Shown: positions 12,099 through 41,301, numbered from the stretch's first letter. The stretch: DNA of 64,000 nucleotides from Nitrospirota bacterium (GCA_963741245.1 CAVUHR010000023.1:91167-155166); one strand, 5' to 3'. Program-made: numbers and translations. Notes: generated by a model from the letters alone, not told the origin.

Positions 12099-12183
12099 AC
12101 GTCTTCCTCTGTGCCGCTAGTTAGGATGCCGGCAAAGTTTGCCGGTCCCATAGACTGTGGTGCGTAAAGCGCGAGAACCGGCA

Positions 12184-12253
12184 GGTCTCTCTTGTTTATC
12201 TGGTCTGTCTCGTTGTTTGGTTGAACCAGATAGACCAGATGAACCAGCTCAAC
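12184..12253. repeat. Nonamer-array palindrome (GGTYTRTYT type)
   Basis: CTTGTTTATCTGGTCTGTCTCGTTGTTTGGTTGAACCAGATAGACCAGATGAACCAG, in the nuoI-nuoJ spacer. Confidence 0.75.
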
Positions 12254-12313
12254 CCTCGCCTGTCCCGCTTATCTCGCTGTTTCCGCTATTCCCGTCGACC
12301 TCGCACAGGCGAT

Positions 12314-12853
12314 TCAGCCGGGTTTTTGCGGCAGGTGCTTGAACGCGACGTTGAAGAACGCCACATTCGGGTGTTGGAGCTCCAACTGCTTCTCGCGAAC
12401 CGGGAACGACCGGTCGCCGATGGCGAGCAATTGTTCCTTGTTGAGGTTCAGCTGCCGCTTATCGTACACCGCCCACTCGTATTCGCGAGTCATGCCGAGG
12501 GCATCCACCGGACAGGCATCGACGCACATTCCGCAAAACAGGCAGCGGGTCATGTCCATGTAATATTCTTTCGCGTAGCGCTTCGTCGGCTCGCCCGGCA
12601 CTTCCGCGCTGACCACGCGAATCACCCGCGACGGGCAGGCGGCTTCGCACAGGTCGCAGCCGACACACTTTTCCGTCCCGTCGTCGTACCGCAACAGGGC
12701 CAACATCCCGCGATAGTTGTCCGGTAGCGTCCGCTTTTCGTGCGGGTATTGCAGGGTGATCGGCTTGTAATGGATCAAATGCGAGATCGTCACTTTCATC
12801 CCGACGAGGATTTCATAGAAAGTGATGGTCTTGATCCAAGTCTTAAATGTCAT
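12314..12853 (-). CDS. nuoI: NADH-quinone oxidoreductase subunit I (2x[4Fe-4S])
   Basis: CVGCDLCEAACP and CLFCGMCVDACP ferredoxin motifs. Confidence 0.95.
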   Translation of the reverse strand: MTFKTWIKTITFYEILVGMKVTISHLIHYKPITLQYPHEKRTLPDNYRGMLALLRYDDGTEKCVGCDLCEAACPSRVIRVVSAEVPGEPTKRYAKEYYMDMTRCLFCGMCVDACPVDALGMTREYEWAVYDKRQLNLNKEQLLAIGDRSFPVREKQLELQHPNVAFFNVAFKHLPQKPG

Positions 12854-23727: not shown

Positions 23728-26448
<2,721 letters not shown>

Positions 26449-26542
26449 GGTACTGTCGCTCGGATCAAACGCCGATGCCTCCGAAAGTATTTGCGCAGTA
26501 TACAGTATCTTTTCTATGAATCCTATAACAAGCAGAGGCTCA

Positions 26543-26666
26543 GCAGGAAGCTGAAAAAGTCCGCCAGCATCGTTCTCGCATCGCTCAGAGGGCTCAACGT
26601 ACCGAAGCGTACGCCTCGCCTCTTTGCTCGCTGCGGCCTTGCTGACGACCTTTTTGAGCATCCTGC
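26543..26666. repeat. ~124-nt rod-like element with terminal inverted repeats (copy B)
   Basis: GCAGGAAGCTGAAAAAGTCCGCCAGC ... GCTGACGACCTTTTTGAGCATCCTGC. The interior (..CGTTCTC..CTCAACGTACC..GCGTACGCCTCG..TGCGGCCTT) is homologous to copy A. Confidence 0.75.
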
Positions 26667-26683: not shown

Positions 26684-26713
26684 TTGACATGCTTAGTGTG
26701 CGTCCATTAGGAT
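26684..26713 (+). promoter_or_regulatory. Possible sigma70-type promoter
   Basis: TTGACA (26684-26689), 18 nt, TAGGAT (26708-26713), about 24 nt upstream of ATG 26737. Pattern match only. Confidence 0.25.
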
Positions 26714-26736
26714 TCGGGCGCGTTACACTCGGTTGA

Positions 26737-27048
26737 ATGCTGATGAACCACACAGTCCTCAAATTCGTGTCGATCCTCCTGGTGCTCTGTGTCCTTTCCG
26801 TCGGCGGATTGGCTCAGGCGCAGTCGGTCGAGCATGCAGGGCACCATGCCCATCATAACGCTGCCACGCATGGCACCGTACTCTGCTCCTGGATGTGTGC
26901 CGCCGGGGAGGTTCTCGATACGGCGGTGGTCACGATTCAGGCCGAACTCAGTCCTATTGCTCTCATCCCGCTCCACCATTTTGCGCAGCCCTCAGTCGAG
27001 CTGTGCCAGACTTCTTCCAGCCGCGCTCCTCCGTCTTTCTCTCTGTAG
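26737..27048 (+). CDS. Small secreted His/Cys protein, paralogue 1
   Basis: Signal/anchor, then HAGHHAHHNAATHGTVLCSWMCAAG, and ends ..SSRAPPSFSL. Confidence 0.7.
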   Translation: MLMNHTVLKFVSILLVLCVLSVGGLAQAQSVEHAGHHAHHNAATHGTVLCSWMCAAGEVLDTAVVTIQAELSPIALIPLHHFAQPSVELCQTSSSRAPPSFSL

Positions 27049-27164
27049 TCTCCGTTGCCCATCGGCTCGCAGCAGGGCCGTATTCCGTCTCTCATTCGAT
27101 CCACTGAGTGGGTTGGAGGATAGGCGGATAGGGACGATTCTTCTAGAGAGGAGGGACCAGCATC

Positions 27165-28295
27165 ATGATGGCAGAGAAACGGTTCACACTCTGGTTCATT
27201 CTCAGCCTTGCTCTCGTTCTCTTCTCGTGGCCCGGCGTCCAGCCCGCGCAGGCCTCGTGTGGGTCGGTCACCTGTTTTGTGGTGATCGGGTCGGCACAGC
27301 AGGTGTCGCCGGCGGGTCTGCTAACCGTAAACACCTTTTATAACTATACGCCTCAAGCGACGTTGCTGAGTGGCACGAACGGGGTTATTCCCGCGGTCGA
27401 TCTCGACAATCGAGATCTGATTCTTGGCCATCACCAGGAGATTAAAACAATTAGTCAGATGGTCACATTGGATTTGAACTACGGCGTCACCGATCGGTTC
27501 GGGATCGAAGTCGCGATCCCCTATAAGAAGATCTACCATCGGCACATAGATGGATTGGGAGAGGCCAATGGTGGCGCTGGTGAGGTCACCGAGTTCTCAG
27601 ATAACGGCATCGGTGACATCTTTATTAACGCGAAATACAACATGTTGCCCACGCTGAGCAGTATGGTTGTAATGGGCTTCGGCATGTACCTTCCCACTGG
27701 TGACCACGATCAGAAGACCGCGGGTCTCGAAGGCAGCGATGAGACGATGGAACCGACAGCCCAGCTTGGACGCGGTCAAGTCGGTCTTTCAGGATCGATC
27801 TATCAAACCTATGAAATCATTCCCCATCGGTTGAACCAATTTGCCTCTGCCAGTTACCGGCACACATTCCGCAATGGCTTTGACTATCAATTCGGCGATC
27901 AATACGATGTGGGACTCGGCGCGAATCTCGTCACAGTTCCCTGGCTTGTGCTGGCCAATCAGTTCAACTTCCGCTACATGGTTCACGATTCTTTTAAGGG
28001 GTCGCTGTCTCAATCACTGACTCCAAGCGATCCTGGGTTCCCCGACGAGGCAACCGTGATCGATCCGAACATCACGAACCGAGCGGTTCCCACAACCGGT
28101 TCAACCTACTTTGCCTATACACCTGGTGTCCAAATCAGTCTAGGTGAACTCATCAAGACTTCCCTGACTGAAAATGCGTCGTTGTATTTCTATTCCCAGA
28201 TCCCTGTATACCGTGATTTCAATGGGAATCTGGCTCAAGGTATAAGCTATGTGTTCGGCATCACGAAGTTGTTCCAAGTCATGAACCCGTCGTAA
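27165..28295 (+). CDS. Outer-membrane beta-barrel 'transporter' (MetA-pathway/phenol-degradation-like porin family)
   Basis: Signal peptide. The mature N-terminus starts ASCGSVTCFVVIGS. Alternating beta-strand pattern with an aromatic C-terminal strand (YVFGITKLF). Good RBS (GGAGGGA). Confidence 0.65.
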   Translation: MMAEKRFTLWFILSLALVLFSWPGVQPAQASCGSVTCFVVIGSAQQVSPAGLLTVNTFYNYTPQATLLSGTNGVIPAVDLDNRDLILGHHQEIKTISQMVTLDLNYGVTDRFGIEVAIPYKKIYHRHIDGLGEANGGAGEVTEFSDNGIGDIFINAKYNMLPTLSSMVVMGFGMYLPTGDHDQKTAGLEGSDETMEPTAQLGRGQVGLSGSIYQTYEIIPHRLNQFASASYRHTFRNGFDYQFGDQYDVGLGANLVTVPWLVLANQFNFRYMVHDSFKGSLSQSLTPSDPGFPDEATVIDPNITNRAVPTTGSTYFAYTPGVQISLGELIKTSLTENASLYFYSQIPVYRDFNGNLAQGISYVFGITKLFQVMNPS

Positions 28296-28326
28296 GAGCA
28301 GTGCTCCTTGTCATGAGGAAATTGCG

Positions 28327-28869
28327 ATGAAACGTCTACATGTTCTGATGGTCGGTATCCTCGTCGCCACCCTCGGGTTCCTGCCGTTCGATGGCTGGAG
28401 CATGGGCTCGCGAGTCCCGGCCGTTGGCATGCAGGCAGAGGATTTCAACCTGACCGATCTAGAGGGCAAATCACAGAGCCTCAGCCAGTATCGCGGCAAG
28501 ATCGTGCTCGTGAACTTCTGGGCCACCTGGTGCAAGCCCTGCACGACCGAAATGCCGGCCATGCAAAAGATTTATGACAAGCTGCGCGACAAAGGCTTCG
28601 TAGTGCTCGCGGTCAACGAATTGGAAGACGACGCCAAAGTGCGCGAGCACATCAAGCAGTACGGCCATACATTCCCGGTCCTGATGGATCGCGACAATAC
28701 AGTGGCCAATCAGTTCGGCGTGTTCGGATTACCCGTGAGCGTGTTCATCGACCAAGAGGGGCGCGTGCAGGAATACGTCAAGGGCGGGCTGCTGACCGAA
28801 GACAAGATTTATCAAACGATCCAGCGCATTCAAGGAAACAAGCCGATGCAGGCAGCATCGGCCCGGTAG
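28327..28869 (+). CDS. TlpA/ResA-like periplasmic thiol:disulfide oxidoreductase
   Basis: N-terminal anchor and thioredoxin fold with FWATWCKPC active site. Confidence 0.85.
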   Translation: MKRLHVLMVGILVATLGFLPFDGWSMGSRVPAVGMQAEDFNLTDLEGKSQSLSQYRGKIVLVNFWATWCKPCTTEMPAMQKIYDKLRDKGFVVLAVNELEDDAKVREHIKQYGHTFPVLMDRDNTVANQFGVFGLPVSVFIDQEGRVQEYVKGGLLTEDKIYQTIQRIQGNKPMQAASAR

Positions 28870-28875
28870 GATAGC

Positions 28876-29181
28876 GTGATTCGATTCAATCGACAGATCC
28901 TCGTTTTGCCATTGGTGGCCTGCCTGTTCTTGGTGCCTGCACTCGCCTCACCGGCGATGGTGGCCCATGGGGCGCGGCATACCCATCACAATGCGGCGAC
29001 CCACTCCTCCGCGCTCTGTTCGTGGCTCTGCGGAGCAGGACAGGGGTTCGAACTTACCGGTTCCGTCTACGTTCCGACCATTGCTTTTCTCGCAACCCTC
29101 GACATCGAGTCAGCCGACCTGGTTGACGATGCCGTCTCAGTTCTCCCCCTCTCTCGCGGTCCCCCTTCGATCTCAACGTAG
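28876..29181 (+). CDS. Small secreted His/Cys protein, paralogue 2
   Basis: GTG start. HGARHTHHNAATHSSALCSWLCGAG, and ends ..LSRGPPSIST. Confidence 0.65.
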   Translation: MIRFNRQILVLPLVACLFLVPALASPAMVAHGARHTHHNAATHSSALCSWLCGAGQGFELTGSVYVPTIAFLATLDIESADLVDDAVSVLPLSRGPPSIST

Positions 29182-29268
29182 CCTTCATCTGTCCCTTAAC
29201 AATCGCGTCTAGCGACGGTGGCTGGTCCCCGGCTTCCGTTGTCTGGTCAATAGAAAGATCGTCGAACC

Positions 29269-30340
29269 ATGACGCACAAACTGCGCTGGCGTTCTGTTCA
29301 ATTCCTTTGTGTTCTGGCAATGATCACCCCGATGGCGTGGCCGTCGTCCGTGAGCGCCTCCTGCGGCTCGGTCAGCTGCTTTGTGGTGATCGGTTCGCAA
29401 CAGCAGGTGCCGATGGCAGGTCTGCTGACCGTCAATGTCGATTTACAACTACACTCCCATGGAAGCGCCTCCGGGGCAAGGCGGCAATATCCCCTTTGCC
29501 GATCAGGGCAATCAAAAGTTGACGCTTGCGAGCTTGGACGTGAATCAAATCCAGACACTCAATCGAACCGCAACGTTGGACATGAACTACGGGTTGACCG
29601 AACGTTTGGGCTTCAGGTCACGCTGCCCTTTAAGCACGTGACCTCCGATGCCCAGATCGGAGGTCTCAATCCGGTTCCATACAGCGACAAAGGTATCGGC
29701 GATATGCGTGTTGCGCTGAAATACAACATGTTACCAACATTGCGGAGCATGGTGGTGCTGGGGTTCGGAGTCGATCTGCCGACCGGCGACTATAAGCAAG
29801 AGGTGGTGCCTGGGACGCTAGCCGAATCGACGCTGCAGGTTGGTCGAGGAAATTTCGGCCTCGTACCGACCATGTACCAAAGCTATGAGCTGATTCCGCA
29901 CCGCCTCAATCAGTTTGCGTTAGCCGGCTATCGGCACACGTTCAAGAACAGCGACGGGTATCAGTTCGGCGACGAAGTGAACCTCAGCGCGGGGTCTCAA
30001 TATCATCCCGCTTGAGCAAACACCGTGGTTTGTCCTGACGCAGCAACTCAATTATCGCTGGATGCAGAACGATGCGATGGACGCTTCGCTCTACCAGTTT
30101 AATCCGGCGACGGGGTCTTCGATCCTGCTCGATCCGACAGTCAAATTTCGTGCAGTGCCGACTACCGGATCAACCTACATCGCCTATTCTCCCGGCATCA
30201 TGCTGAACCTCTGGAATTTCGCCTCAGCGTATTTCATCGCGCAGATTCCCCTGTATCGCGATTTCAACGGCAACCTCGAACAGCAGATCAGTTATGTCTT
30301 CGGACTCTCCAAATCGTTCCAGTTGCTCGGTGGGTCGTAA
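29269..30340 (+). pseudogene. Second MetA-type porin paralogue, disrupted by at least 3 frameshifts
   Basis: Similarity to the 27165 porin jumps between frames. Frame X covers SASCGSVSCFVVIGSQQQV..LLTVN. Frame Y (29435-29615) covers SIYNYTP...LDMNYGLTERLGF. It returns to frame X for QVTLPFKHV...YRHTFKNSDGYQFGD. It shifts again near 29990 to LNIIPLEQTPWFVLTQQLNYRWMQND, reaching the 30062-30340 ORF. Confidence 0.75.
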
Positions 30341-30353
30341 AGGCAAGGGGTAG

Positions 30354-30797
30354 ATGATCGGCACGTTCTTACAGATGTGGACAGCGAGTCGCCGAGCCAG
30401 ATTCTCCCGTGCGATTGCGGGCGTCTGTGTGGTGCTCTGGGTGGCCGGGTCCGTCTCCACTCTGTATGGAAGCCTCGCCCCGCAATGGACAACGCCCCAC
30501 TGTCCGCAATCTCATTCGAACAGTACACATCACACCCATGGATCTTGCGCGTGGCACTGTGATGGGATCGAACGCGCAATCCTCCTCTGGCCGGTCATGG
30601 GGGCCATCCATTGCTCCGACTGGGTATCTGTTCGGAGATTCAACAGTCACGAGTATGCACTGCGATTCTTCAGGGTGGGAAGGTCATCCGTGGGCCGCCT
30701 CATTCTATTTTCTTCGGATTCGTCTAAGCCATGTTACAACGACAGGATTCCCACGAGGATTCCCGCACAAACAAAATCAGGAAGGATGCACACATGA
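30354..30797 (+). CDS. Small His/Cys protein, divergent paralogue 3; C-terminus uncertain
   Basis: N-terminal TM helix, then HSNSTHHTHGSCAWHCDG. The family's terminal R-G-P-P motif (VIRGPPHSIFFGFV*) appears only in another frame ending near 30727. Confidence 0.45.
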   Translation: MIGTFLQMWTASRRARFSRAIAGVCVVLWVAGSVSTLYGSLAPQWTTPHCPQSHSNSTHHTHGSCAWHCDGIERAILLWPVMGAIHCSDWVSVRRFNSHEYALRFFRVGRSSVGRLILFSSDSSKPCYNDRIPTRIPAQTKSGRMHT

Positions 30798-32380
30798 AGT
30801 CGACTAAAAATCGGACCATAGCCATTACGAGCGCCGCAACGGCAATGCTGGGATTGGTCCTAATTGCCCTTGCCAGCTGCAGTTCCGGAGACGACCCCAT
30901 TGCTACACCTACCACAGGCGGCAGCGCGGGGCTCCAAGGGCCGTTGGTGTTTGTCAACAATACGGGAGACAAAACGCTGACCAGCGTGGCACTCAAGGGC
31001 GACTCGGGAAATGCCGTGGTGAACACACTCGGTCCAGGCGTCTTCGGCAACGTAGCTCTTGGTGACATGCAGTTTTCAGAAGGCGAGTGGCTCTTTATGA
31101 ATCTGGGATTGGTAAATTCCGTGGCCCTAATCGATCCACTGTCCGGTGCTACGCCTATTTTTGAGAAGATTATACAGGTTGGAAACAGACCGGTTCACAT
31201 CTATCGCGACCCCACTGATGGTGAAGTGATCTGGTCTATGATCGATGGCTCTGCCGCGACAGGTCTCGACGATGTGCCAGCGACCATACCCCATACGCCT
31301 CCCCAGCTAGATGAGATCATTGACTGTACTTCGACGGGCGGCGGAGCAGTGACGATCTTTCACAACTCGCATTTGGGCCCCGGGGGTGTGATCCCTAAGA
31401 TCATCGGGAAGGTTTGTCTCTATGCGAAAGGGCATAAGGTGACCGCGTTCTCCTCGGGAGCAGGGGTTCCCAAGAGGGCCTTTGTTTCAAGCGAAGTTTC
31501 CGGAGAAATTTCCGTGATCAACAACGATGAGACCTCGCCGGATTATCTGAAGCTCATCAATCGGATCGATCTATGCAATTCGACAAAGGAAGCTGTGCCC
31601 TGCAACGATGAGTCGGCAACTCCATTGACAACGGCCTTCACGCCCAACAATTCCGCCCCCCACGGGATTCGTTGGTCGAAACTCACCAAGAAGGTCTACA
31701 GCATCAATGAGGGGTATCACAATATCGTCGAAATCGACCCGGCGAGCTTGGCGATTACAAACACGTTCGATCTTACGGGATCGCTATACACCGCGTACGG
31801 GATCAGCCCTGATGGCCGTTTCCTGTTGCTGCGCGGCGACACCACTCCTCCGACGGGAACGAAGTTGGGAGTGATCGATCTGGGCACGGCAGGCAACCCA
31901 CGAACCGATTTTACCATCCCCGAGTTGGATGGTACTTCACCCGGATCGTTCAAGTTCTCGCCGGACGGAAAGCGGTTCTATATTCTGGCGGGGAACGCCG
32001 CCACGGCGACCAAAAAGGATCGACTCTTTGCCTTCAATTCCTCCACATTAACGGCGGCTGTTCCATCCCTTACTCTCCTTAGAGAGATCGTACTGGTGGC
32101 TACTGGTGGACATAGCATGGATGTCTTGGCGCAGGGAGCCGGGGGAGCCAAGTATATCGTGGTCTCGAACAGCACGGATAATTCCGTCTCGATCATCAAT
32201 GCGACGGATAATCTGATCAAGCAGACGGTACCCGTTGGGCCAACGCCCGGCGGCGTCATGGTCTATTATCCTGGTTTCGCCGCAGCCGGCAATCAAGCCA
32301 CGTCATCGCTCACGGGAGGGTCAAAATCCACGCCTTCTGTGTTACCCGAACTGCTCGACGATCATGGCATGCCGGAATAG
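30794..32380 (+). CDS. Lipoprotein with YVTN-type beta-propeller repeats
   Basis: Lipobox LIALASC. Repeats such as NSVSIINATDNLIKQTVPVGPTPGGV and ISPDGRFLLL. RBS AGGAAGGA upstream of ATG 30794. Confidence 0.7.
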   Translation: MKSTKNRTIAITSAATAMLGLVLIALASCSSGDDPIATPTTGGSAGLQGPLVFVNNTGDKTLTSVALKGDSGNAVVNTLGPGVFGNVALGDMQFSEGEWLFMNLGLVNSVALIDPLSGATPIFEKIIQVGNRPVHIYRDPTDGEVIWSMIDGSAATGLDDVPATIPHTPPQLDEIIDCTSTGGGAVTIFHNSHLGPGGVIPKIIGKVCLYAKGHKVTAFSSGAGVPKRAFVSSEVSGEISVINNDETSPDYLKLINRIDLCNSTKEAVPCNDESATPLTTAFTPNNSAPHGIRWSKLTKKVYSINEGYHNIVEIDPASLAITNTFDLTGSLYTAYGISPDGRFLLLRGDTTPPTGTKLGVIDLGTAGNPRTDFTIPELDGTSPGSFKFSPDGKRFYILAGNAATATKKDRLFAFNSSTLTAAVPSLTLLREIVLVATGGHSMDVLAQGAGGAKYIVVSNSTDNSVSIINATDNLIKQTVPVGPTPGGVMVYYPGFAAAGNQATSSLTGGSKSTPSVLPELLDDHGMPE

Positions 32381-32417
32381 GAGAGCACTCCACGTTTCAT
32401 TTTTAACCTGAAACCAA

Positions 32418-32439
32418 GGGGGCAGGACAACCTGCCCCC
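32418..32439 (+). terminator. Stem-loop after the YVTN gene
   Basis: GGGGGCAGG-ACAA-CCTGCCCCC: perfect 9-bp GC-rich stem with a 4-nt loop. The U-tract is poor (TTCGAAAC). Confidence 0.5.
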
Positions 32440-32462
32440 TTCGAAACAAAAATCATTTCGCC

Positions 32463-32759
32463 ATGGAGAGGACTATGGATAAAACACTCTTGCGCGTGGG
32501 GGAAGCCGCAGACTTCTTGTCGGTGAGCCGCTGGACCATCTATCGTTGGGTGGAAGAGGGCCGCCTCGAAGGGACGAAGATCGGGCGCGGAAGCCTGCGG
32601 GTGTTTTTTCACTCAATCGAAATGCTTGTTGAGCAAAGCCGAACGGAAGATGTGCCGAATGCGAGGATATCAGGCCCCAAGATAATGCCGATCATGGAAG
32701 TTGCCAGGTCGAGAAGCAACCACTCACCAGCGATGGGGATACATGCGACGAAAATCTAA
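32463..32759 (+). CDS. Excisionase/MerR-superfamily helix-turn-helix DNA-binding protein
   Basis: LLRVGEAADFLSVSRWTIYRWVEEGRLEGTKIGRGSLRV matches the excisionase-type HTH_17 pattern. Confidence 0.7.
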   Translation: MERTMDKTLLRVGEAADFLSVSRWTIYRWVEEGRLEGTKIGRGSLRVFFHSIEMLVEQSRTEDVPNARISGPKIMPIMEVARSRSNHSPAMGIHATKI

Positions 32760-32760
32760 G

Positions 32761-33385
32761 TGTGTGTAGCATCTGTGAGTAGCTGTCGGTAGACAAGTTG
32801 TCGGCGGACGCGTATAGAAGTGACATCGTGGAGAAATTGATGACACGTTCTGCTGCATCACGCAGGACCGTTCTTGTCGCAGGGTTCGTGGCCCTGGTCT
32901 ATGCGTCGCTGGTGGCGGTGGCGGCGAGCTGCGCGGTGAGTCACGTCGATCCCCCTAGCGGCCATACGCATCATGGTTCGAAAGAGGCTGCTCCGCACAA
33001 CGCGCTCTGCGCCTGGGCCTGTCAGGCCGCGTCCGATGCCGGACTGGTGCCGGAGTCGCCGGCGTTGTCATCGACCCTGATCGTCCGGTTGATGGTCGCA
33101 TCTCCTAATCAGGTGATCCCTTCATTCTCCTCTACTCTGCTCCGCTCCCGTGCGCCTCCGTCGGTTTCCTGCGTCCTCATCGGATAAGGGACCCCGGGCG
33201 GCCTGTATTGTTCTAATTCCCCTCGCGCTCCCCTATTCGATCGCAGTTACGCGTACACACAATTGACGGTTATTGAGCTATCGATGTCCGAGCATGGCAG
33301 CAGCCCCTCCCGTGCTCGGATTGATCCGGGGCGCAGGTGCTCCTCCTCGTGCCTCCACCCCGGCTTTTTATCGCGAGGTGCCTCG
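32761..33385. repeat. Segmental duplication, copy 1 (~620 bp)
   Basis: Roughly 85-90% identical by eye to 38349-38975. Spans the small His/Cys gene plus ~190 nt of downstream leader. Confidence 0.85.
32840..33187 (+). CDS. Small secreted His/Cys protein, paralogue 4
   Basis: ATG 32840 with GGAGA RBS. TM anchor, then GHTHHGSKEAAPHNALCAWACQAA, and ends ..RSRAPPSVSCVLIG. Confidence 0.7.
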   Translation: MTRSAASRRTVLVAGFVALVYASLVAVAASCAVSHVDPPSGHTHHGSKEAAPHNALCAWACQAASDAGLVPESPALSSTLIVRLMVASPNQVIPSFSSTLLRSRAPPSVSCVLIG

Positions 33386-33949
33386 ATGATACATGCCATG
33401 AATATACCTCTCTGCCGTTGGGCGATCGGAACTGGGCTGTGTCTCGCAGTTTTGGCGCAGTGCGAGACCGTCATGGCTCAGGCCTCGCGACCGATCGAGG
33501 AGATGCGAGGCAATTGCGATCACTATGCGCTGGATGTCCGAAAAGAACTGGCGGCGATGGAAGGCGTCCCACGGAACCTGACCGCGCTGACCGAACGTGG
33601 GGCTGCGCCCCCGATCAGTCCGAGCCGTCAATCCCTCTTGGTGACCCTACAGCACCGCGAATCCGTCACTCTTGTAGCGACGCCGAAACCCGAGGGTCCC
33701 AACGCGGGGCTCCTGGCGTTGTCCGTCCCAGAGGACGGGCTCTACCGCATCAGTGTAGGGGCTGCCGTCTGGATCGAGGTAGTGGACGGCCAGGCGCGAG
33801 TGGAGCCAACGCAGTTCGAGATGCAGACAGGCTGCGCCACGCTCTTCAAGACGATCCAGTATCGGTTGAAGAAGGACGTGAGCTACTGGCTCGAGCTGTC
33901 CGGAGCTACATCGACGGCCACCATTGTATTGTCATCAGAAACGAAGTGA
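33386..33949 (+). CDS. Hypothetical secreted protein (~187 aa)
   Basis: ATG 33386 preceded by GAGGTG. Signal peptide MIHAMNIPLCRWAIGTGLCLAVLAQCETVMA. No family recognised. Confidence 0.55.
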   Translation: MIHAMNIPLCRWAIGTGLCLAVLAQCETVMAQASRPIEEMRGNCDHYALDVRKELAAMEGVPRNLTALTERGAAPPISPSRQSLLVTLQHRESVTLVATPKPEGPNAGLLALSVPEDGLYRISVGAAVWIEVVDGQARVEPTQFEMQTGCATLFKTIQYRLKKDVSYWLELSGATSTATIVLSSETK

Positions 33950-33952
33950 TCC

Positions 33953-34567
33953 ATGTCTCTGACTCTCGGTATGACGCAACAGGAGTTCGTTCAGGCCATG
34001 CGGATGGGAGACGCACGTGAACAGACGTTGCATATCGTCGTCGTGAGGCTGCTGACCATTGCCCTGATGGTAACGGACTGGCGCCAGCCGCAGGACCAGC
34101 TAGGATTCTTGCCGGTGCCGGAGGGGTACCGAACTTGGCCGGTCGTGGAATCTCAGTTGGAGTCGCGCAGGCGCCGCCAGCGGTTCAGGTTGTATGTGGG
34201 GCCCCACGCCGCGACCCTCTCGGACGACCAGCCCTTTCCAGTCGGTACGGCCTTCGTCGTGGAGACCGTTGACATCGAGGTTGCCGGTGAGCCGCTCGTC
34301 TCGCGGTTTGTCAAGGAAAGATATGCTGATGTGACAACCGGCGAGTCGGATCGCGTGCAATACGGGGTCTGGGCCTCTGCGAGACCTATGGGACGGCCGG
34401 TGACGTGCTGCCGATGGACGAGACGGCCTGCGCGCCACTGCCATTCGAGCTCAGGAGATCCACTCATCTCGCTCGCCTGCGCAGAGCCAGCAGAGTCGGT
34501 CGAGTCAGGATGCACAGAAAGGAGGGAGACGATGAACGGGAGGGCGACCCCGTCCGGCCCCGCTTGA
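33953..34567 (+). CDS. Cytochrome P460 / c'-beta-like protein; haem motif not intact in frame
   Basis: FLPVPEGYRTW, FRLYVGP and FPVGTAFVVETV resemble the P460 family. An expected ..LP..E.AC..CH is visible only by switching frames near 34381-34436. Confidence 0.45.
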   Translation: MSLTLGMTQQEFVQAMRMGDAREQTLHIVVVRLLTIALMVTDWRQPQDQLGFLPVPEGYRTWPVVESQLESRRRRQRFRLYVGPHAATLSDDQPFPVGTAFVVETVDIEVAGEPLVSRFVKERYADVTTGESDRVQYGVWASARPMGRPVTCCRWTRRPARHCHSSSGDPLISLACAEPAESVESGCTERRETMNGRATPSGPA

Positions 34568-34647
34568 TTGTAATTTATCGGGAGAGGAAGGAGGCACTCG
34601 AATAGTTCGTAGGGATCCATTCACAATTTTTGAAGGAGGAACGTCCA

Positions 34648-34968
34648 ATGAAGCAGATATGGATGACGGTCATGGCAGTGGCGGTACTCGGGATGGGCCT
34701 GAGCATGCAGCCGGCAGTCTCGCTGGCAGGGGAGGCAGAGGATCATACCCAGGAGGTGATCAAGCACGCCAAGGAAGGGATCGCGCATACGAAGGAAGCG
34801 ATCCATCACATCGAAGAGTCCATCAAGGTGACCGGCGATGCGCATGCCAAAGAAGCGCTGCAACATGCGAATGAAGCGGTTGTTCACGCGGAGCAATCGA
34901 TCGCCCATGCCGAGATGGAGGCGAAGAAGCCGATGTGTTGCCCGGAAGGGATGAAGGAGCACAAGTAG
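34648..34968 (+). CDS. SmbP-like small His-rich metal-binding protein
   Basis: Signal peptide, then heptad-like His repeats (IKHAKEGIAHTKEAIHHIEESIK..AHAKEALQHANEAVVHAEQSIAHAE). Ends in MCCPEG. RBS GAAGGAGGA. Confidence 0.65.
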   Translation: MKQIWMTVMAVAVLGMGLSMQPAVSLAGEAEDHTQEVIKHAKEGIAHTKEAIHHIEESIKVTGDAHAKEALQHANEAVVHAEQSIAHAEMEAKKPMCCPEGMKEHK

Positions 34969-34975
34969 GGAAGCC

Positions 34976-35060
34976 TGTCTGGTTCATTTGGTCTGTCTGG
35001 TCTGTCTGGTTTATTTGGTTGAACGAAACTAACCAGATGGACCAGATAACCAGACAGACC
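34976..35060. repeat. Nonamer-array palindrome (TGGTYTRTY)n
   Basis: TGGTTCATT TGGTCTGTC TGGTCTGTC TGGTTTATT TGGTTGAAC..AACCAGATGG ACCAGATA ACCAGACAGACC. Directly after the SmbP-like gene. Confidence 0.8.
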
Positions 35061-35238
35061 GGGTTTGTCCCAGTCTCGCGGACCAGTTGAAGACGCTGCA
35101 TTATGGATCGTAAACTGAATCAGATAAACGTCATCCCGCTGGTCGATCTTATGTTAGTAGCACCGTTATCTGTTCCAATCTGACGCTGTGACATATTTCG
35201 ATGACCTAGGGCTTCATCTTCTGCACTGAGAGCGTGTG

Positions 35239-35595
35239 ATGGTCAACATTGTAAAAAGTTTCGAGAAAGAAATCCGGAGTGCCCAACGCACACGAAGATC
35301 TGTGGCAGGACTGTTGGTGCTGATGTGGGTGGTAGGGTGCGGTGGGGTGTTTACCGGAATCCCGGACCTGGATACTCCCGATGGGCGGGTGTTCGCGCAA
35401 CGTTGTGGGGCCTGCCACGGCAAGTCCTTTAGGGCCCATGGGGTGCCGGATCCGCGGTTCCGGACGATGGTGGAATGGCGGCAGGAGATCCTGCCAAAAA
35501 TGGACCATCTTATGCGCGAAAGCGGGCTCCCGCCTCTAACGGAACGGGAGCGTGAGGCCATCATCCGTTACCTCAGCGATCACGCTAAATCATAG
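35239..35595 (+). CDS. Monohaem c-type cytochrome, probable lipoprotein
   Basis: Lipobox-like LMWVVGC. Single CGACH haem-binding motif. Confidence 0.7.
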   Translation: MVNIVKSFEKEIRSAQRTRRSVAGLLVLMWVVGCGGVFTGIPDLDTPDGRVFAQRCGACHGKSFRAHGVPDPRFRTMVEWRQEILPKMDHLMRESGLPPLTEREREAIIRYLSDHAKS

Positions 35596-36121
35596 GGCTC
35601 AACCTTAAGGCAGCATTCCAGACCTTGCTCGGGATCTCTACCCAGAAAGCGCCGCGAATCCTGCCGGAACTGGTCAACCGAAGTCAACCGGAGAAGCATT
35701 CAGCTCAAATTGAAGAACGGACAGGTGTCTCGGTACACTCCACAACATCAGGCCTGACTTGCGGCAGCTGCACAGCCTTTGAGGATCGCATGGAACGGTG
35801 CGAGACCGGAAATCTCCGGACCAAATCCAGCAAGATCACGTGCGACTTTATACCATCAGAGTAATTTCTCCCGTGTGACACCCCGTCGTAAGTCAGGTCG
35901 GCATAGGATAGAGAATCCCTTGTACTTTTCGGTGGATGGGACGACCACCAGCGCCAGAGACAATGGTGTTTAGACCATTCCCGTTATCCGCGTGAGTAAC
36001 TGAGAGGGTGGCGAAATACGGGGCGCGGGTCACCTTGCGCATGATCGAAAGCACCGTTTATAACTGACCAGCGCAATAGTGATTGAACGAGAAAAGGTGC
36101 TGGCCGCTAAAGGAGATCGAA

Positions 36122-36628
36122 ATGCTTAGAACACCGCTTCTTATTGTTGCGTTATTGTTTCTGCAGAATGTAGCGTATGCCGGAACGGATATACCATTGC
36201 CCGAAGGAGTCCACGTCTTTAAACAGGACATATTCCTATCGGGCGCTCCGCACGAAAACACGTTTCGTGACATGGCACAGGCGGGGGTCAGAATCGCAGT
36301 CGACTTGCGAGAGCCCGAAGAAATACAAGGATTCGAGAAACGTGCCGCAAAACAACATGAGATCACCTACTATTCAGCTCCCATCTCCCGAGTTGGAGAC
36401 TTGCAACAAGATCAAATCGAAGCGGTCGATCGAATCGTTGCCCAAAGGCAGGGTCAGAAAATATGGGTTTACTGCAATTCGGCAAACCGCGCCGCCTCCT
36501 GGATGGCCATTCATCTTGCTAAGACCCAGGGAATGAAGGCGGATGACGCCATCGCTGAAGCTAAACACCTCGGTCTAAACAAGGAAGAAATGGTGACGAA
36601 GGTTCGAGCCTTTTTGCAAAGGAAGTAG
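36122..36628 (+). CDS. Secreted DUF442/PTP-loop-like protein
   Basis: RBS AAAGGAGA. Signal peptide. VYCNSANRAAS resembles the Cys-x4-Arg loop of the DUF442 phosphatase-like family. Confidence 0.55.
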   Translation: MLRTPLLIVALLFLQNVAYAGTDIPLPEGVHVFKQDIFLSGAPHENTFRDMAQAGVRIAVDLREPEEIQGFEKRAAKQHEITYYSAPISRVGDLQQDQIEAVDRIVAQRQGQKIWVYCNSANRAASWMAIHLAKTQGMKADDAIAEAKHLGLNKEEMVTKVRAFLQRK

Positions 36629-37242
36629 AATGGCGCTCCTGAGTAGCAGGGTTTGAGATCTGCGATACACGAGTACGCGGTTAAAGCCAGATCTTCACTA
36701 GGTACTCGGCGAGCTGATCGAGGCTTGTCAGACCTGATGGTCTCATCCGTGCTTCGATCGTGCGGCACACCACAACCCTGACTGCACTTAAGAACGTGAG
36801 CTGTTCGACAATCCATTGCATAGACATCATGCATTAGGATCGGTGAATCCAGCCTTCTGAACCCTCACCAGTATGTAAGGGAAAGGCAAGGTTGTAACCG
36901 AGACTAGACCGGCGGGCGTGTTCAATCCACTCCTACCACGACTGTTTTGAGAGGCGTCTCCGCTGTTTCGAGCATCCCTCCCGACCAAAGGGCAGCGTTT
37001 CATTCGAGGCTCCCCTGGCTCAATTCCTTCTCGGCGCCTCGTACATGACATGAGTGGCTCATTTGCATGAATATACATTCCCCTTTGATTACGGCAGCTG
37101 GTTGTTAATACGTTGCGGAGGTGGCAAAGCCCAGCTATCCGAAGACCATCTTGGATTTTGCTACTCAATTCATCTCCGCGCTCGCGGGGAACACTTCGCC
37201 GCCAGCAGGCGTCCCGTGAAGAAAAATCCCTGTCGAGCGCCC

Positions 37243-38139
37243 TCAATTGGCTGTGGTCTTCGAGAGTGTGCGCCCGGTCAGGTAAAAAACATAGGCCGGC
37301 ACCAGGGGCAGGACGCAGGGCGAGAGGAAGGAGAGCAGCCCGGCCAGCATGGCGATGAAAAAGGTGGGTGTCATCCCGCCCAGGGAACCCGGCTCCAGAT
37401 AGAGGTTATGCTCCTGCGTCCAGCGCGCGATGATCGCCAACTGTTTCGTCAGGAGGGCAAAGCCGATGAGAATGAGCAGCGTGCCGTTAATCAACTGAAT
37501 CATCCGTATGTGGCGCTTGAGCGAGTGCAACAGGCCGGTAGCGCGATCCAGCGCCAGCGCAAAGATGACGAAGGGAATCCCCAGGCCCAGCGAATAGCCC
37601 GAAAGCAGAAATGCGCCCTGGCTGATGGTCGCGGTGCTATAGCTCAGCGCCAGAATCGCGCCCAGCGTCGGGCCGATGCAGGGCGTCCAGCCTGCCGAGA
37701 AGAACATGCCCATGAGGAAGGAGGGCACATAGCCGCTGCCGCTGCGCCTGCCCCAATCGGCGCGGGTGTCGGCGTAGAAATAACGCAGAAAGAGGTCAAT
37801 CCCGCCCTTTATCCAGCCGACCGGCAGCAGCCACCAGTGCTCACCCTCTTCAGCGGCGGCATCTTCCAGGCGGCCCAACCACCTTGATAGAGCGCCGAAC
37901 AGGCCCATCGTCGCCAGGCCAAACAGGATGACGACGACACCCCCGATCCGGGCCAGCGGCCCCCGGAGGTCAAATACCAGTTGGCCGATGCCGCTCACCA
38001 CCGAGCCCACGCCGACGAAGACGACCGAAAAGCCGAGCACGAAGAGGAGCGCGTGGATCACCGGCCTGGGTCGGGCCGCTTGTCCCCCTTGCGCCGGTGC
38101 GACCGCCGTGGCTGCGCCCTGCGTGATTGTCTCTTTCAT
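37243..38139 (-). CDS. ccdA: CcdA/DsbD-family thiol-disulfide transporter, circularly permuted
   Basis: GWTPCIGPTLGAILAL is central. LAGLLSFLSPCVLPLVPAYV, normally in TM1, is the last helix. ATG 38139 (MKETITQ) has GGAGGA 7 nt upstream. Confidence 0.75.
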   Translation of the reverse strand: MKETITQGAATAVAPAQGGQAARPRPVIHALLFVLGFSVVFVGVGSVVSGIGQLVFDLRGPLARIGGVVVILFGLATMGLFGALSRWLGRLEDAAAEEGEHWWLLPVGWIKGGIDLFLRYFYADTRADWGRRSGSGYVPSFLMGMFFSAGWTPCIGPTLGAILALSYSTATISQGAFLLSGYSLGLGIPFVIFALALDRATGLLHSLKRHIRMIQLINGTLLILIGFALLTKQLAIIARWTQEHNLYLEPGSLGGMTPTFFIAMLAGLLSFLSPCVLPLVPAYVFYLTGRTLSKTTAN

Positions 38140-38348
38140 CCTATTGTCCTCCGACGCCCCATTATATACCCGACCTCGTGATGATTGGCAGAGACTTCCC
38201 ACCGCCTTTTCCTCCTGCTCCTCCTCCAAGAGTATCTGGAGGTCATCCGCACATGACCCGAATCATTCACGACTGAAGTCCCGGTGGGTTCGCGCTCATG
38301 ATTCCCACCGATCTCAGTGATCAAGACTGCCTCATCCCATCTTGAGGT

Positions 38349-38975
38349 TTGTAGTATCCGTGAGCATCCGTGAGCAGGGGTCGGTAGACAGGTTATCGGC
38401 GGACGCGTATAGAAGTGACATCGTGGAGAAATTGATGATGCGTTCTGCTGTATCACGCAGTACCGTTCTTGTCGCAGGGTTCGTGGCCTTGGTCTATGCC
38501 TCGCTTGCAGTGATGGCGGCGAGCTGCGCGATGAGTCACGTCGATCCCTCCTAGCGGCCATGCGCATCATGGTTCGCAAGAATCTGCTCCGCACAACGCG
38601 CTCTGCGCCTGGGCCTGTCAGGCCGCGTTCGATGCCGGACTGGTGCCGGAGTCGCCAGCGTTGTCATCGACCCTGATCGTCCGGTTGATGGTCGCATCTC
38701 CTAATCAGGTGATCCCTTCATTCTCCTCTACTCTGCTCCGCTCCCGTGCGCCTCCGTCGGTTTCCTGCGTCCTCATCGGATAAGGGACCCCGGGCGGCCT
38801 GTATTGTTCTGATTCCTCTCGCGCTCCATTATTCGATCCCAGTCTCGCGTCCACACAATTGACGATTGTTGATTTATCGATGTCCGGGTCGGGCTGCCTC
38901 CTCGCTCGGACTGATCCGGGGCGCAGGTGTTTCCTCCTCAATGCCTCCGCCCCGGTTATTTACTTGGTTGGTTTT
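38349..38975. repeat. Segmental duplication, copy 2
   Basis: See 32761-33385. Confidence 0.85.
38435..38783 (+). pseudogene. Small His/Cys protein paralogue 5, frameshifted
   Basis: Copy 1 reads GATCCCCCTAGC (DPPS). This copy reads GATCCCTCCTAG, a 1-nt difference in length that creates TAG at 38552-38554. The rest (HAHHGSQESAPHNALCAWACQAA...RAPPS) continues in the +1 frame. Confidence 0.8.
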
Positions 38976-38989
38976 GAAGGGATGTCGCG

Positions 38990-39343
38990 ATGAGACGTGT
39001 GTCCTTTCTCGCATTGGCCGGGTGGTTGATGATCGGGACTGCATCGTTTGCGGCTAGGGCTCCAGAAACCGAGTCCGTGGAGTCGAAGACGGCGGCGGGC
39101 GAGGCTATCGTCCAGATTTTCGGTCGTATGTGAGAATACCATCGTGAGGATGTCGAAGCGGCGCTTCGTGCATTCAAGATGGTTCGACAGGTGGATTTTT
39201 TGAATAACCATGGTACTGTGCTGGTGCGGTATTGGCCCGGCAGCGGGATGCCCGAGCAGTTACGCGGGGTGGTACATCGCGCATTCGGGTCAGGCCGGAA
39301 TTGCACGGCGCGGGTGGATCGTGGTATACGCAGAAACTGGTGA
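38990..39343 (+). CDS. Secreted HMA-like protein with in-frame TGA (candidate Sec) at codon 48
   Basis: The reading frame stays open and paralogue-like through TGA 39131-39133: MRRVSFLALAGWLMIGTASFA...IVQIFGRM-U-EYHREDVEAALRAFKMVRQVDF...MPEQLRGVVHRAFGSGRNCTARVDRGIRRNW*. Confidence 0.5.
39148..39175 (+). promoter_or_regulatory. Stem-loop 14 nt downstream of the in-frame TGA (possible bacterial SECIS)
   Basis: Upper stem CGAAGC(39154-59)/GCTTCG(39163-68) with G-rich apical loop GGC. Lower stem 39148-52 / 39171-75. Confidence 0.4.
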
Positions 39344-39365
39344 CGATTCAACAGGAGGGGAGATC

Positions 39366-39668
39366 ATGAATACAATCATCAAGTTTGGCTGTCTGATCGG
39401 ATTCGTTTGTGCGATGGCGACGCCGGTCTTCGCGGGCGAGGAGAAAGTCATGATCATGCTCGGCGGCAAGTACTGCGATGCCTATTTGGGCAATGTCCAG
39501 GCTGCGCTGACGAAAGTGGCCGGCGTGAAGGCGGTCGATGTCAAGAGTATGGCGGGCCATGCGGTGGTGACCGTCGAATCCGGTAAGGTGAAGCCAGAAC
39601 AGCTAGTCACAGCAGTCAACGGCGTGAAAGGCGATAGCTGGTATTGCACAGGCGAGATCATGAAGTGA
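39366..39668 (+). CDS. Secreted HMA-like protein, Cys-containing paralogue
   Basis: RBS AGGAGGGG. Signal peptide. VMIMLGGKYCDAYLGNVQAALTKVAGVKAVDV...KPEQLVTAVNGVKGDSWYCTGEIMK has a beta-alpha-beta-beta-alpha-beta-like pattern. Confidence 0.65.
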   Translation: MNTIIKFGCLIGFVCAMATPVFAGEEKVMIMLGGKYCDAYLGNVQAALTKVAGVKAVDVKSMAGHAVVTVESGKVKPEQLVTAVNGVKGDSWYCTGEIMK

Positions 39669-40596: not shown

Positions 40597-41301
40597 ATGA
40601 TCACCCTCTCTCACCTGACGATGCGCTTGGCCGGCGGCGGCCATCAGATCACGATCCTCGACGATATCACACTCGAAATTCCTGATAAGCAGCGCGTGGC
40701 CATCGTCGGCCCATCCGGGAGTGGGAAGTCCACCTTGCTGGGCCTCATCGCGGGACTGGATCGCCCGACGTCCGGCTCCATCACATTGAACGGCGTGGAG
40801 ATCTCGACGATGCGCGAGAGTGCCTTGGCGCGGTATCGTCGCGATCATATCGGCTACATCTTTCAATCCTTCCATCTCATTCCCACCCTCACCGCCCTGG
40901 AAAACGTCCTGGTGCCGCTGGAGTTGGCAGGGATGCGCACGGCACAGGATCGCGCAACGGATCTGTTGCGGACCGTCGGTCTGGGAGAACGGCTGCATCA
41001 TTATCCCGTCCAACTCTCGGGAGGCGAGCAGCAGCGGGTGGCGGTGGCCAGAGCGTTCGCCTGTCACCCTCCGATTCTGTTGGCCGATGAGCCAACCGGC
41101 AACTTGGATTCGGCTACGGGAGAGCACGTGATGAATCTGCTCCGTTCCCTCCATCGCGATTACGGCACCACCTTAGTCCTCGTCACGCATGAGCGAGCCA
41201 TCGCGTCCTCGATGGAACGTGTGATTGCGTTGCGCGACGGTCGCATCGAATCCGATACCCTCACCGACTCAGACGGTCGAGTTGCAGAGTCATCCCAATG
41301 A
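40597..41301 (+). CDS. ybbA: ABC transporter ATP-binding protein (YbbA/LolD-like)
   Basis: Walker A GPSGSGKST, signature LSGGEQQRVAVARA and Walker B ILLADEPTGNLD. Divergent from tesA as in E. coli tesA-ybbA-ybbP. Confidence 0.85.
   Translation: MITLSHLTMRLAGGGHQITILDDITLEIPDKQRVAIVGPSGSGKSTLLGLIAGLDRPTSGSITLNGVEISTMRESALARYRRDHIGYIFQSFHLIPTLTALENVLVPLELAGMRTAQDRATDLLRTVGLGERLHHYPVQLSGGEQQRVAVARAFACHPPILLADEPTGNLDSATGEHVMNLLRSLHRDYGTTLVLVTHERAIASSMERVIALRDGRIESDTLTDSDGRVAESSQ

Follow-up and report, generated by a model that had tools for sequence, protein, structure and literature searches.

CruR (Bp2923), a DUF2946 protein of Bordetella pertussis, is encoded by an upstream open reading frame (uORF) at which RAPP-dependent ribosome arrest keeps a TonB-dependent transporter gene expressed (Roy et al. 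2022, PMC9426467). Copper, sensed via a CXXC motif, relieves this arrest and leads to Rho-dependent termination (PMC9426467). Members of the DUF2946/CruR group have an export signal, a Cys motif and an RAPP sequence three residues from the C-terminus, with a 45-residue spacing kept within 1-2 residues, and CruR mutants in RAPP, in CXXC or with five residues added to the spacing lose expression or copper control; the signal peptide is dispensable, and cytoplasmic copper sensing was proposed (PMC9426467). Here, we describe a family of small His/Cys open reading frames (ORFs) of Nitrospira, represented by five copies in a 64,000-nucleotide stretch of DNA from a Nitrospirota bacterium (GCA_963741245.1, CAVUHR010000023.1:91167-155166; hereafter the window, with positions counted from its first letter). 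These ORFs are probably cis-acting regulatory uORFs of the CruR/CutF type, in which a nascent-chain metal sensor is combined with an R[AG]PP ribosome-arrest motif.

CutF of Rhodobacter capsulatus has a signal peptide, a CxxxC motif and a Pro-rich C-terminus (PPP), is exported co-translationally and opens a stem-loop in which a ribosome-binding site is masked (PMC9973294; bioRxiv 10.1101/2025.02.05.636593). RAPP and RGPP are the most arrest-prone tetrapeptides and the most under-represented across bacterial phyla (EMBO J 2025, PMC12992588), and they cluster at the C-termini of small ORFs located before TonB-dependent receptor, copper and thioredoxin genes (PMC12992588). The type of mechanism proposed here is already known from CruR and CutF, described in 2022-2025, and is not a new principle. 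Relative to the literature compared, new elements are the phylum, the His-rich CX3C sensor, the 41-42-residue ruler, the passive COG4313/FapF-like porins with an N-terminal Cys pair as main targets, and the presence of up to three serial sensors per operon and five per locus. Neither Nitrospira nor porins are mentioned in the CruR/CutF/RAPP-type literature compared, and a 2026 comparison of copper transport in nitrifiers covers only PcoABCD/CopABCD, CopA, CueO and CusCFBA, without porins or TonB (PMC13374858).

The small His/Cys ORFs and their family

An ORF listing and a three-frame translation confirmed five paralogous small ORFs, all on the plus strand, in the region 26737-39668. A preliminary description, made from the sequence of the window, had named these five paralogues and their shared architecture, both of which were borne out by the listing, by the alignment and by the 989 homologues described below. 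uORF1 (26737..27048) encodes 103 aa, or 101 aa if read from the ATG at 26743, with an export signal, the cluster HAGHHAHH...H, CSWMC, a 41-residue linker and the C-terminus SRAPPSFSL. uORF2 (28876..29181; 101 aa) starts with a GTG 6 nt past the tlpA stop and carries HGARHTHH...H, CSWLC and a terminal SRGPPSIST. uORF4 (32840..33187; 115 aa) has SGHTHH...H, CAWAC and a 42-residue linker and ends with SRAPPSVSCVLIG, and uORF5 (38435..38782) is its duplicate, with a 1-nt insertion near 38548. uORF3 (30354..30727) belongs to a YVTN-class subfamily and carries HCPQSHSNSTHHTHGSCAWHC and, at the stop, RGPPHSIFFGFV; it contains two frameshifts, its N-terminal part, its middle and its RGPPHSIFFGFV end lying in three frames when compared with intact 123-aa orthologues. 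The frameshift in copy 5 had been pointed out earlier, while the break in copy 3 had escaped notice.

An N-terminal hydrophobic segment, a His cluster, L-C-x-W-x-C-x-A, a variable stretch and S-R-[AG]-P-P-S are common to uORF1, 2, 4 and 5; the last motif ends 4-8 residues ahead of the stop in the window copies. In the alignment, the His cluster, C-x-W-x-C and S-R-[AG]-P-P do not vary, and within real ORFs of the whole 64-kb window, R[AG]PP tetrapeptides occur in these five only. The export signal is legible in the sequences as a hydrophobic h-region followed by an AxA-type site. The AlphaFold2 model of uORF1, built with 150 sequences, has a helix at residues 5-34, corresponding to this signal, and a second helix at residues 48-58 that carries the Cys motif, whereas residues 59-103 are coil (predicted template modelling score (pTM) 0.41).

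A profile search of 5.8 billion proteins returned 989 homologues, all unnamed or annotated as "hypothetical", the named sources being all Nitrospira/Nitrospiraceae. An exhaustive hidden Markov model search of 1.84 billion representatives (E ≤ 0.001) gave 275 clusters at 50% identity. Among the best 150 representatives, CxWxC was found in 141/150 and R[AGSTC]PP in 137/150; the distance between CxWxC and R[AG]PP was always 41 or 42 residues, and the tail after PP measured 1-8 residues, most often 4. In 156 genomic copies from 82 sources, the spacing between sensor and RAPP was 41 in 119 copies and 42 in the remaining 37, so that the variable stretch of the preliminary description exists, but is 41-42 residues long rather than about 45. 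Column conservation was 0.64 for the sensor block (Q.V.H..HHAHH.A.TH...LC.W.CAAGQ), 0.23 for the linker and 0.83 for SRAPP; by individual column, it was 1.0 for C50, 0.99 for C54, 0.99 for R96, 0.98 for P98 and 1.0 for P99, with Ala or Gly at position 97. Five His near the Cys pair are nearly invariant, and a sixth His column is found in about 78% of representatives. Because its length is fixed while its sequence varies, the linker is a ruler and not a domain. The ORFs of the family are intact across the 275 clusters and 80 Nitrospira genomes. One 4984-aa match of the representative search (P0154) was discarded as spurious: it is a repeat protein rich in Cys, and it lacks CxWxC.

At the first Pro position of R[AG]PP, whose codon would occupy the P site in the expected arrest, CCT is used by 104/156 copies (67%; e.g., 27028-27030 and 33155-33157), against a background of 14% of Pro codons in long ORFs of the same loci (L001-L081); the second Pro codon is unbiased, and the YVTN-class uORFs do not show the CCT bias (0/14). 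At locus L001, a second family member (12182-12493) is not called in the source annotation, and the small uORFs of the family are likely under-annotated.

DUF2946 (Pfam PF11162), named in the preliminary description, proved to be a good lead, although its matches stay below threshold: it is the most common Pfam match among the representatives, with 21/150 at E ≤ 1 and a best value of 0.001. No DUF2946 match was obtained for 10 further representatives compared with Pfam at E ≤ 10. A tblastn search of plasmids with copy 1 for an annotated DUF2946 relative gave two matches (E 4 and 9), both spurious, lying inside or out of frame with larger genes. Apart from the precise CXXC spacing and a Pfam score above threshold, all the hallmarks that describe DUF2946 are present, namely the export signal, a Cys pair, RAPP near the C-terminus, the fixed spacing and the position ahead of envelope genes. 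The Cys pair is invariant, but it is arranged as C-x-W-x-C (CX3C, the CutF spacing) and not as the CXXC of DUF2946. Since the Cys spacing and the Pfam score depart from DUF2946 while the other hallmarks are shared, we file the family, on sequence grounds, as a DUF2946-like sister group and not as a proven member.

The family resembles CruR in its export signal, its Cys motif, its C-terminal RAPP (3-4 residues from the C-terminus) and its predicted poor structure. Both have a fixed spacer between Cys and RAPP (45 residues in CruR, 41-42 in the Nitrospira family), stand first in an operon for an outer-membrane uptake protein, have a region with more C than G at the 3' end of the uORF and are followed by a long leader (162 nt in CruR, roughly 70-200 nt in the Nitrospira family). 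In contrast to CruR, the Nitrospira family has CX3C (C-x-W-x-C) instead of CXXC, a conserved HxxxHxxH...H cluster for which the description of CruR has no counterpart, a sub-threshold match to the Pfam model, and a place in the phylum Nitrospirota. Its usual target is a passive COG4313/MetA porin, whereas that of CruR is a TonB-dependent transporter, and it occurs in 2-5 copies per locus, several of them in one operon.

Under the CutF-like rule set of Ozturk et al. (2023), the window copies are shorter than 150 aa (101-123), have PP within the last 15 residues and a signal peptide, and are followed by a same-strand gene within less than 1000 nt. With CutF, they share the CX3C motif and, for uORF1, a predicted helix that would hide the downstream ribosome-binding site until opened by the stalled ribosome; some CutF-like clusters also mix Cys and His. 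However, CutF uses a PPP motif that depends on elongation factor P and turns on a detoxifying multicopper oxidase at high copper, whereas the Nitrospira ORFs have the intrinsically strong R[AG]PP and uptake-type targets, for which the opposite sign of regulation would be expected. The distance from Cys to Pro is also different, at about 69 residues in CutF and about 44 here. A core arrest tetrapeptide near the C-terminus of a small exported ORF is likewise found in ApdA, ApdP and SecM (RAGP) (PMC7897499, PMC10951233, PMC12992588), whose arrest release is thought to need a pulling force on the nascent chain, as we suggest below for the Nitrospira ORFs. Those proteins, however, monitor Sec/YidC and regulate sec genes, while the Nitrospira family has a metal-type sensor and targets with functions in envelope uptake or redox.

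Genomic context and leader RNA

A pattern scan with one genome per species gave 128 relatives, and 80 loci were kept, almost all of them from Nitrospira metagenome-assembled genomes or isolates. The conserved gene order is a divergent secA followed by uORF-porin-tlpA-uORF-porin-uORF-YVTN; in some lineages, TonB and a TonB-dependent receptor are found in place of the porins, or tlpA directly behind the first uORF. Conservation of the neighbourhood, which the preliminary description had put forward as a check, was strong, with secA adjacent in 72/81 related loci, tlpA present in 62/81 and a porin in 60/81. Two or more uORFs were present in 31/34 loci of at least 10 kb. This near-universal synteny rules out a mobile island as far as the core is concerned; a 6.8-kb accessory module, described below, is strain-variable.

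A same-strand ORF is located downstream of 147/156 copies. The downstream classes, counted over the 156 copies, are porins (73), YVTN proteins (14), TonB-dependent receptors with plug and barrel (14), TlpA (14) and TonB (11). The gaps between uORF and next gene are mostly 60-170 nt, with class medians of 67-166 nt for the main classes and a maximum of 426 nt. An HTH_17 gene was found in 8/81 loci, four times directly behind a uORF, and is a recurrent component of the locus rather than a prophage marker. At loci L019, L035 and L037, a secreted 149-aa protein without a Pfam family (containing IFYWEEKVSETAFVPHELRHLPVKRG) is encoded behind the first uORF, in place of the porin. In the window, 31 nt separate the porin 1 stop from tlpA, 6 nt (with AGGA in front) separate the tlpA stop from uORF2, and 13 nt separate the porin 2 stop from uORF3. 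As the first three uORFs are tightly packed on the same strand, the series uORF1-uORF3 is consistent with a single operon with internal checkpoints.

The unit that has been duplicated in the window is the small ORF together with its flanks. A direct repeat of 485 nt joins copy A (32768..33250, plus strand; uORF4 with 72 nt upstream and 63 nt downstream) to copy B (38363..38846, plus strand; 90-95% identical, holding uORF5). The repeat, including the 72 nt on the 5' side and the 63 nt on the 3' side, is set before two different genes; a regulatory cassette has thus been duplicated ahead of each.

A consensus scan located a sigma-70-type promoter for uORF1 at 26684..26713 on the plus strand (TTGACA, 18 nt, TAGGAT), of which the -35 TTGACA and the -10 TA..AT are invariant in 31 orthologous upstream regions. 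In this 31-sequence alignment, no Fur/Zur/CsoR-like operator or palindrome of the metal-repressor type was seen upstream of uORF1. An invariant promoter without an operator fits post-transcriptional control. It should be noted that the counts from the promoter and terminator scan did not exceed those of shuffled sequences, and conservation backs the uORF1 promoter only. An Rfam scan of the island returned nothing.

Between uORF1 and porin 1, a structured leader RNA is predicted at 27033..27164 (plus strand), in which the end codons of the uORF pair with the Shine-Dalgarno region of porin 1 and enclose conserved hairpins. In the minimum free energy fold, the codons just past RAPP (27033-27048) pair with the GAGAGGAGG ribosome-binding region of porin 1 (about 27145-27160), and RNAalifold recovers the closing helix of this leader. 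Over 34 orthologous leaders, 78% of cells were paired, versus 43-50% in slid controls. The double-sided changes in the leader helix were matched by 2/500 shuffles, with an unexceptional covariation score and a structure derived from one of the sequences. Partition functions (n=66) gave 6.4 expected pairs between the arrest/tail segment and the porin initiation region, versus 2.0, 2.1 and 0.5 for neighbouring segments of equal length. After collapse to 28 leader clusters, the means were 4.6 versus 2.5, 1.4 and 0.6 (p 0.12, 0.009 and 5e-5), and the arrest/tail segment was the strongest of the four in 15/28 clusters. Around RAPP, the RNA is also rich in C and poor in G: from -60 to +30 nt around the Arg codon, the mean over 156 copies was 0.34-0.39 for C and 0.19-0.22 for G. 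This C>G bubble resembles that of cruR, which holds a rut (Rho utilisation) site. The read-out could be unmasking of the ribosome-binding site, protection from Rho, or both, and both may operate.

A highly conserved element, GCAGTATACAGCATCTTTTCCATGAATCCTATAAT, lies between secA and uORF1 (about 26480-26520; columns 201-240 of alignment A7), and its minus strand holds TGTATACT, which resembles an extended -10 promoter for secA. The window has an extra insertion of about 150 nt between this secA-proximal element and the uORF1 promoter. The longest secA ORF (23728-26661, minus strand) starts 72 codons ahead of the conserved SecA N-terminus; translation probably begins near 26445, leaving about 290 nt of intergenic sequence before uORF1.

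A proposed arrest mechanism and competing explanations

A linker that is predicted to be coil, variable in sequence and fixed in length, an R[AG]PP arrest motif, and a duplicated unit made of the ORF and its flanks together fit a regulatory nascent peptide. From these motifs, the ruler without a folded domain, the context, the conservation, the tendency to RNA pairing and the rut-like composition, and by analogy with CruR and CutF, we infer the arrest, its ligand, the sign of regulation and the geometry relative to Sec as follows. A constitutive promoter would produce a polycistronic mRNA (uORF1-porin1-tlpA-uORF2-porin2-uORF3-YVTN), with uORF4 and uORF5 heading further units. A ribosome translating a uORF would stall when its P and A sites are occupied by the two Pro codons of R[AG]PP. 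By then, the N-terminal signal would already be engaged with the Sec translocon, and the 41-42-residue linker would span the exit tunnel and the channel, so that the His cluster and C-x-W-x-C would come to lie at the periplasmic mouth or close to it. With about 44 residues from the second Cys to the peptidyl-transferase centre, the Cys pair would be just out of the tunnel, and the His cluster, 53-65 residues back, would be at the translocon or on the periplasmic side. Metal loading, or a thiol redox state set by TlpA/CcdA, would then alter the pulling or folding force and with it the duration of the arrest. The stalled ribosome would keep the downstream gene on by opening the helix that masks its ribosome-binding site, which is best supported for uORF1 and porin 1, and/or by covering the C-rich, G-poor rut-like stretch and thereby blocking Rho termination.

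By the logic of CruR, metal scarcity would cause arrest, with the uptake genes on, and metal repletion would cause release, with the genes off. This sign of regulation (on when metal is scarce) is the most likely by analogy, because the targets are entry routes, i.e., porins, TonB-dependent receptors and TonB. Copper is our best guess for the ligand, as copper is the metal of the precedent systems, Cys and His occur together in the site, and TlpA, HMA-like and SmbP-like genes are nearby; Zn, Ni, Co or a pure thiol-redox signal are conceivable alternatives. We also considered that serial arrest sensors with differing His/Cys sequences in one transcript (uORF1-porin-tlpA-uORF2-porin-uORF3-YVTN) gate successive modules and so grade the permeability of the outer membrane to thiophilic metals, that the COG4313 porins with their Cys pair form, with TlpA, an undescribed TonB-independent entry route for copper(I) in nitrifiers, and that the ruler places the sensor exactly at the periplasmic mouth of SecYEG on arrest. 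This extension is tentative, and we consider it possible but rather doubtful.

Several points weigh against metal-sensing arrest peptides. Arrest, metal binding and regulation are predicted for this family from sequence and analogy, and Pfam and NCBIfam scans of the five window copies gave no family match, with none to DUF2946 at E ≤ 1. The AlphaFold2 confidence of the coil region is fairly high (predicted local distance difference test (pLDDT) 75-89), and the model leaves room for a templated or bound conformation there. As regards the leader, one of the three pairing controls is no longer significant after clustering (p=0.12), the duplex energy of the tail with the Shine-Dalgarno sequence is no different, family-wide, from that of uORF-body controls (p=0.38), and the gain in Shine-Dalgarno accessibility with a ribosome footprint at the arrest site rather than upstream is not significant (p=0.18 and 0.63). 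Pairing is seen weakly in the RGPP/porin 2 group and not at all for uORF2 of the window, and the C>G bubble is partly due to the Arg, Ala, Pro and Ser codons. Finally, the TonB-dependent receptors of sister loci resemble the PqqU type and not the OprC type, far below the cut-off.

The preliminary description regarded the small proteins as chaperone-like partners of the porins in an undescribed system. Stable, exported His/Cys metallochaperones that pass a thiophilic metal to or from the adjoining porin or propeller would account for the export signal and the conserved His/Cys site, for the small ORFs adjoining genes of envelope proteins, for the invariant Cys pair of the porins and for the TlpA, CcdA and HMA-like genes nearby. 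However, no folded domain follows the metal site, the 45 residues beyond it being coil with a linker kept in length and not in sequence, and an invariant R[AG]PP, which proteomes avoid, is placed 1-8 residues ahead of the stop. The same type of ORF precedes unrelated partners (porin, TonB-dependent receptor, TonB, thioredoxin and HTH protein), the duplicated unit comprises the ORF and its flanks, and the CutF and CruR proteins are undetectable in vivo and act only in cis. We therefore set the chaperone function aside as very unlikely, but consider plausible the proposed involvement of a thiophilic metal, with thiol reductant coming from TlpA/CcdA.

Arrest peptides that sense periplasmic thiol-redox state or Sec capacity instead of metal would differ in that a disulfide in C-x-W-x-C releases the arrest and expression tracks oxidative folding. 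TlpA is the most constant neighbour and sometimes the direct target, CcdA is present, RAPP/RGPP uORFs are enriched before DsbA, thioredoxin and sec genes (PMC12992588), the CutF model includes disulfide formation (bioRxiv 10.1101/2025.02.05.636593), and the locus abuts secA in 72/81 related loci. Yet the five near-invariant His beside the Cys pair are needless for a redox sensor and resemble a metal site. In line with the copper-responsive CruR, the regulated genes encode outer-membrane entry channels, TonB and TonB-dependent receptors; secA is divergent and hence not under cis control. Redox or Sec sensing is thus unlikely, though less so than a chaperone function. That the ORFs are decaying remnants or gene-calling artefacts on a degenerating mobile island is suggested by the frameshifts of copies 3 and 5 and of porin 2 in the window, by the excisionase-type HTH gene and by the absence of a 6.8-kb segment from a near-identical strain. 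This is largely refuted and hardly tenable, as the ORFs are intact throughout the family, synteny with secA is near-universal, and the 1-nt indels differ between two 98.4%-identical assemblies and also strike FtsX, making assembly noise likely.

If metal-sensing arrest peptides are indeed encoded at these loci, nearly every Nitrospira genome would have outer-membrane entry channels under post-transcriptional control beside secA, and nascent-chain metal sensing of the CruR/CutF type would gain a further phylum and, as targets, passive porins. Standard annotation misses the regulators of these channels, which are labelled "hypothetical" or, like the second copy at L001, not called. In soils and waterworks, copper availability shapes how comammox Nitrospira, canonical Nitrospira and ammonia oxidisers compete, and the loci offer clear targets for markers of metal limitation in nitrifying communities by transcript analysis or ribosome profiling. 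The roughly 275 sequence-diverse sensors with an identical ruler are a natural set for studying how ligand binding is coupled to release from RAPP.

Downstream genes, accessory module and assembly differences

The genes from porin 1 to the HMA-like pair are on the plus strand unless stated otherwise. Porin 1 (27165..28295) is a COG4313/MetA-type channel of the outer membrane, predicted to have 12 strands, and matches Pfam PF13557 (Phenol_MetA_deg) with 28.9 bits, above the cut-off of 22. A search of the Protein Data Bank (PDB) by sequence gave no match to porin 1, while its AlphaFold2 model, of moderate confidence (pLDDT 62, pTM 0.61), superposes in Foldseek on the 12-stranded barrels of the COG4313 channel Pput2725 (PDB 4RL8) and of FapF (target-normalised template modelling score 0.56-0.65, E 6e-9 to 3e-8). 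Porin 2 (29269..30340) is of the same family, as described earlier, and has three 1-nt indels in this assembly; both porins match PF13557. Hydrophobic molecules are the presumed substrates of COG4313 channels. With about 345 mature residues, the Nitrospira porins are larger, and they differ in an invariant N-terminal sequence that is undescribed for COG4313, S-C-G-[SA]-V-x-C-F-V-V-I-G-S. In porin 1, the mature N-terminus reads SCGSVTCFVVIGS, followed by one variable residue and QQV; the full motif, ending in x-Q-Q-V, shows no variation among 31 close homologues and persists in 71 porins that include both paralogue types. It is located at 27255-27310 in porin 1 (residues 31-48) and at 29359-29414 in porin 2, with low AlphaFold2 confidence, and might act as a plug, bind metal or be a substrate of TlpA.

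The TlpA-like periplasmic thioredoxin (28327..28869) has a match to the thioredoxin family (AhpC-TSA, E 6e-32; Redoxin, E 3e-27), and its WCKPC and N-terminal hydrophobic segment are legible in the sequence. The YVTN-type beta-propeller lipoprotein-like gene (30731..32380; the start may be at 30794) matches NCBIfam beta_rpt_yvtn weakly, and its earlier YVTN label stands at the level of the repeats but not beyond it. An HTH_17 DNA-binding protein of the MerR/excisionase type is encoded at 32463..32759 (Pfam E 1.8e-9). Cargo genes behind uORF4 encode a secreted protein of unknown family (33383-33949), a P460-like protein (33953-34567; weak, 23.8 bits versus a cut-off of 27), an SmbP-like His-rich protein (34630-34968; weak, 21.8 bits versus 29), a mono-haem cytochrome c (35236-35595) and a rhodanese/DSP-like protein (36083-36628). 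A CcdA/DsbD-type thiol-electron transporter follows on the minus strand (37243..38229; Pfam DsbD_TM, E 1.2e-9). Among the partner genes named earlier, the MetA-type porin 1 scores above its cut-off and the TlpA-like, CcdA and HTH proteins are confirmed by solid matches, whereas the P460-like, SmbP-like and HMA-like labels fall below their cut-offs.

In strain L082, which has an identical porin 1 and 98.4% nucleotide identity and was used as the reference for comparing indels, porin 2 (356 aa) and the FtsX permease are intact, while breaks affect YVTN, the uORF2 start and the end of uORF3. The window, in turn, has interrupted copies of porin 2, of uORF3 and of the FtsX permease, a housekeeping gene that is frameshifted and split at about 41600-41705. 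The differences between the two assemblies (26700-32526 and 41298-43968) include many scattered 1-nt indels, mostly outside homopolymers. Because these indels are scattered, differ between assemblies and also strike FtsX, the frameshifts in copy 3, in porin 2 and perhaps in copy 5 are more likely assembly noise than decay. We considered copy 3 and porin 2 as pseudogenes, but find this less likely, since in a near-identical assembly with as much noise they are either whole or broken in other ways.

L082 does not contain the segment 32527-39288 of the window (6.76 kb), and at the junction the beginning of the HTH_17 gene runs into the end of the first HMA-like gene; this looks like a deletion, or an assembly collapse, in L082. 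Since it is absent from L082, the 6.8-kb module, with uORF4 and its cargo, CcdA, uORF5 and the TGA-containing HMA-like gene, is a strain-variable accessory. Its unknown-family, P460-like and rhodanese-like genes were found in 0/81 related loci.

Behind uORF5 are two genes for HMA-like secreted proteins, a pair that the preliminary description had given as a selenocysteine and a cysteine version; the HMA-like label stays under the cut-off. The first (38990..39343) has an in-frame TGA at 39131, aligned to a Cys of its homologues. This codon (39131-39133) stands where loci L006 and L081 have Cys (FGRM[U/C]EYHRED). Just after the TGA, the RNA can fold into a hairpin of -22.7 kcal/mol (z -2.0; 9/200 shuffles as good), whereas the fold of the Cys-encoding homologue is no better than shuffles. 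The ORF is either a candidate selenoprotein or the product of a nonsense error, given the noisy assembly. The second gene (39366..39668), the Cys version, is HMA/MerP-like (Pfam HMA, 23.2 bits versus a cut-off of 24.8), with NCBIfam MerP/CopZ-like matches far under their cut-offs, and is also present at loci L001, L013, L015 and L028.

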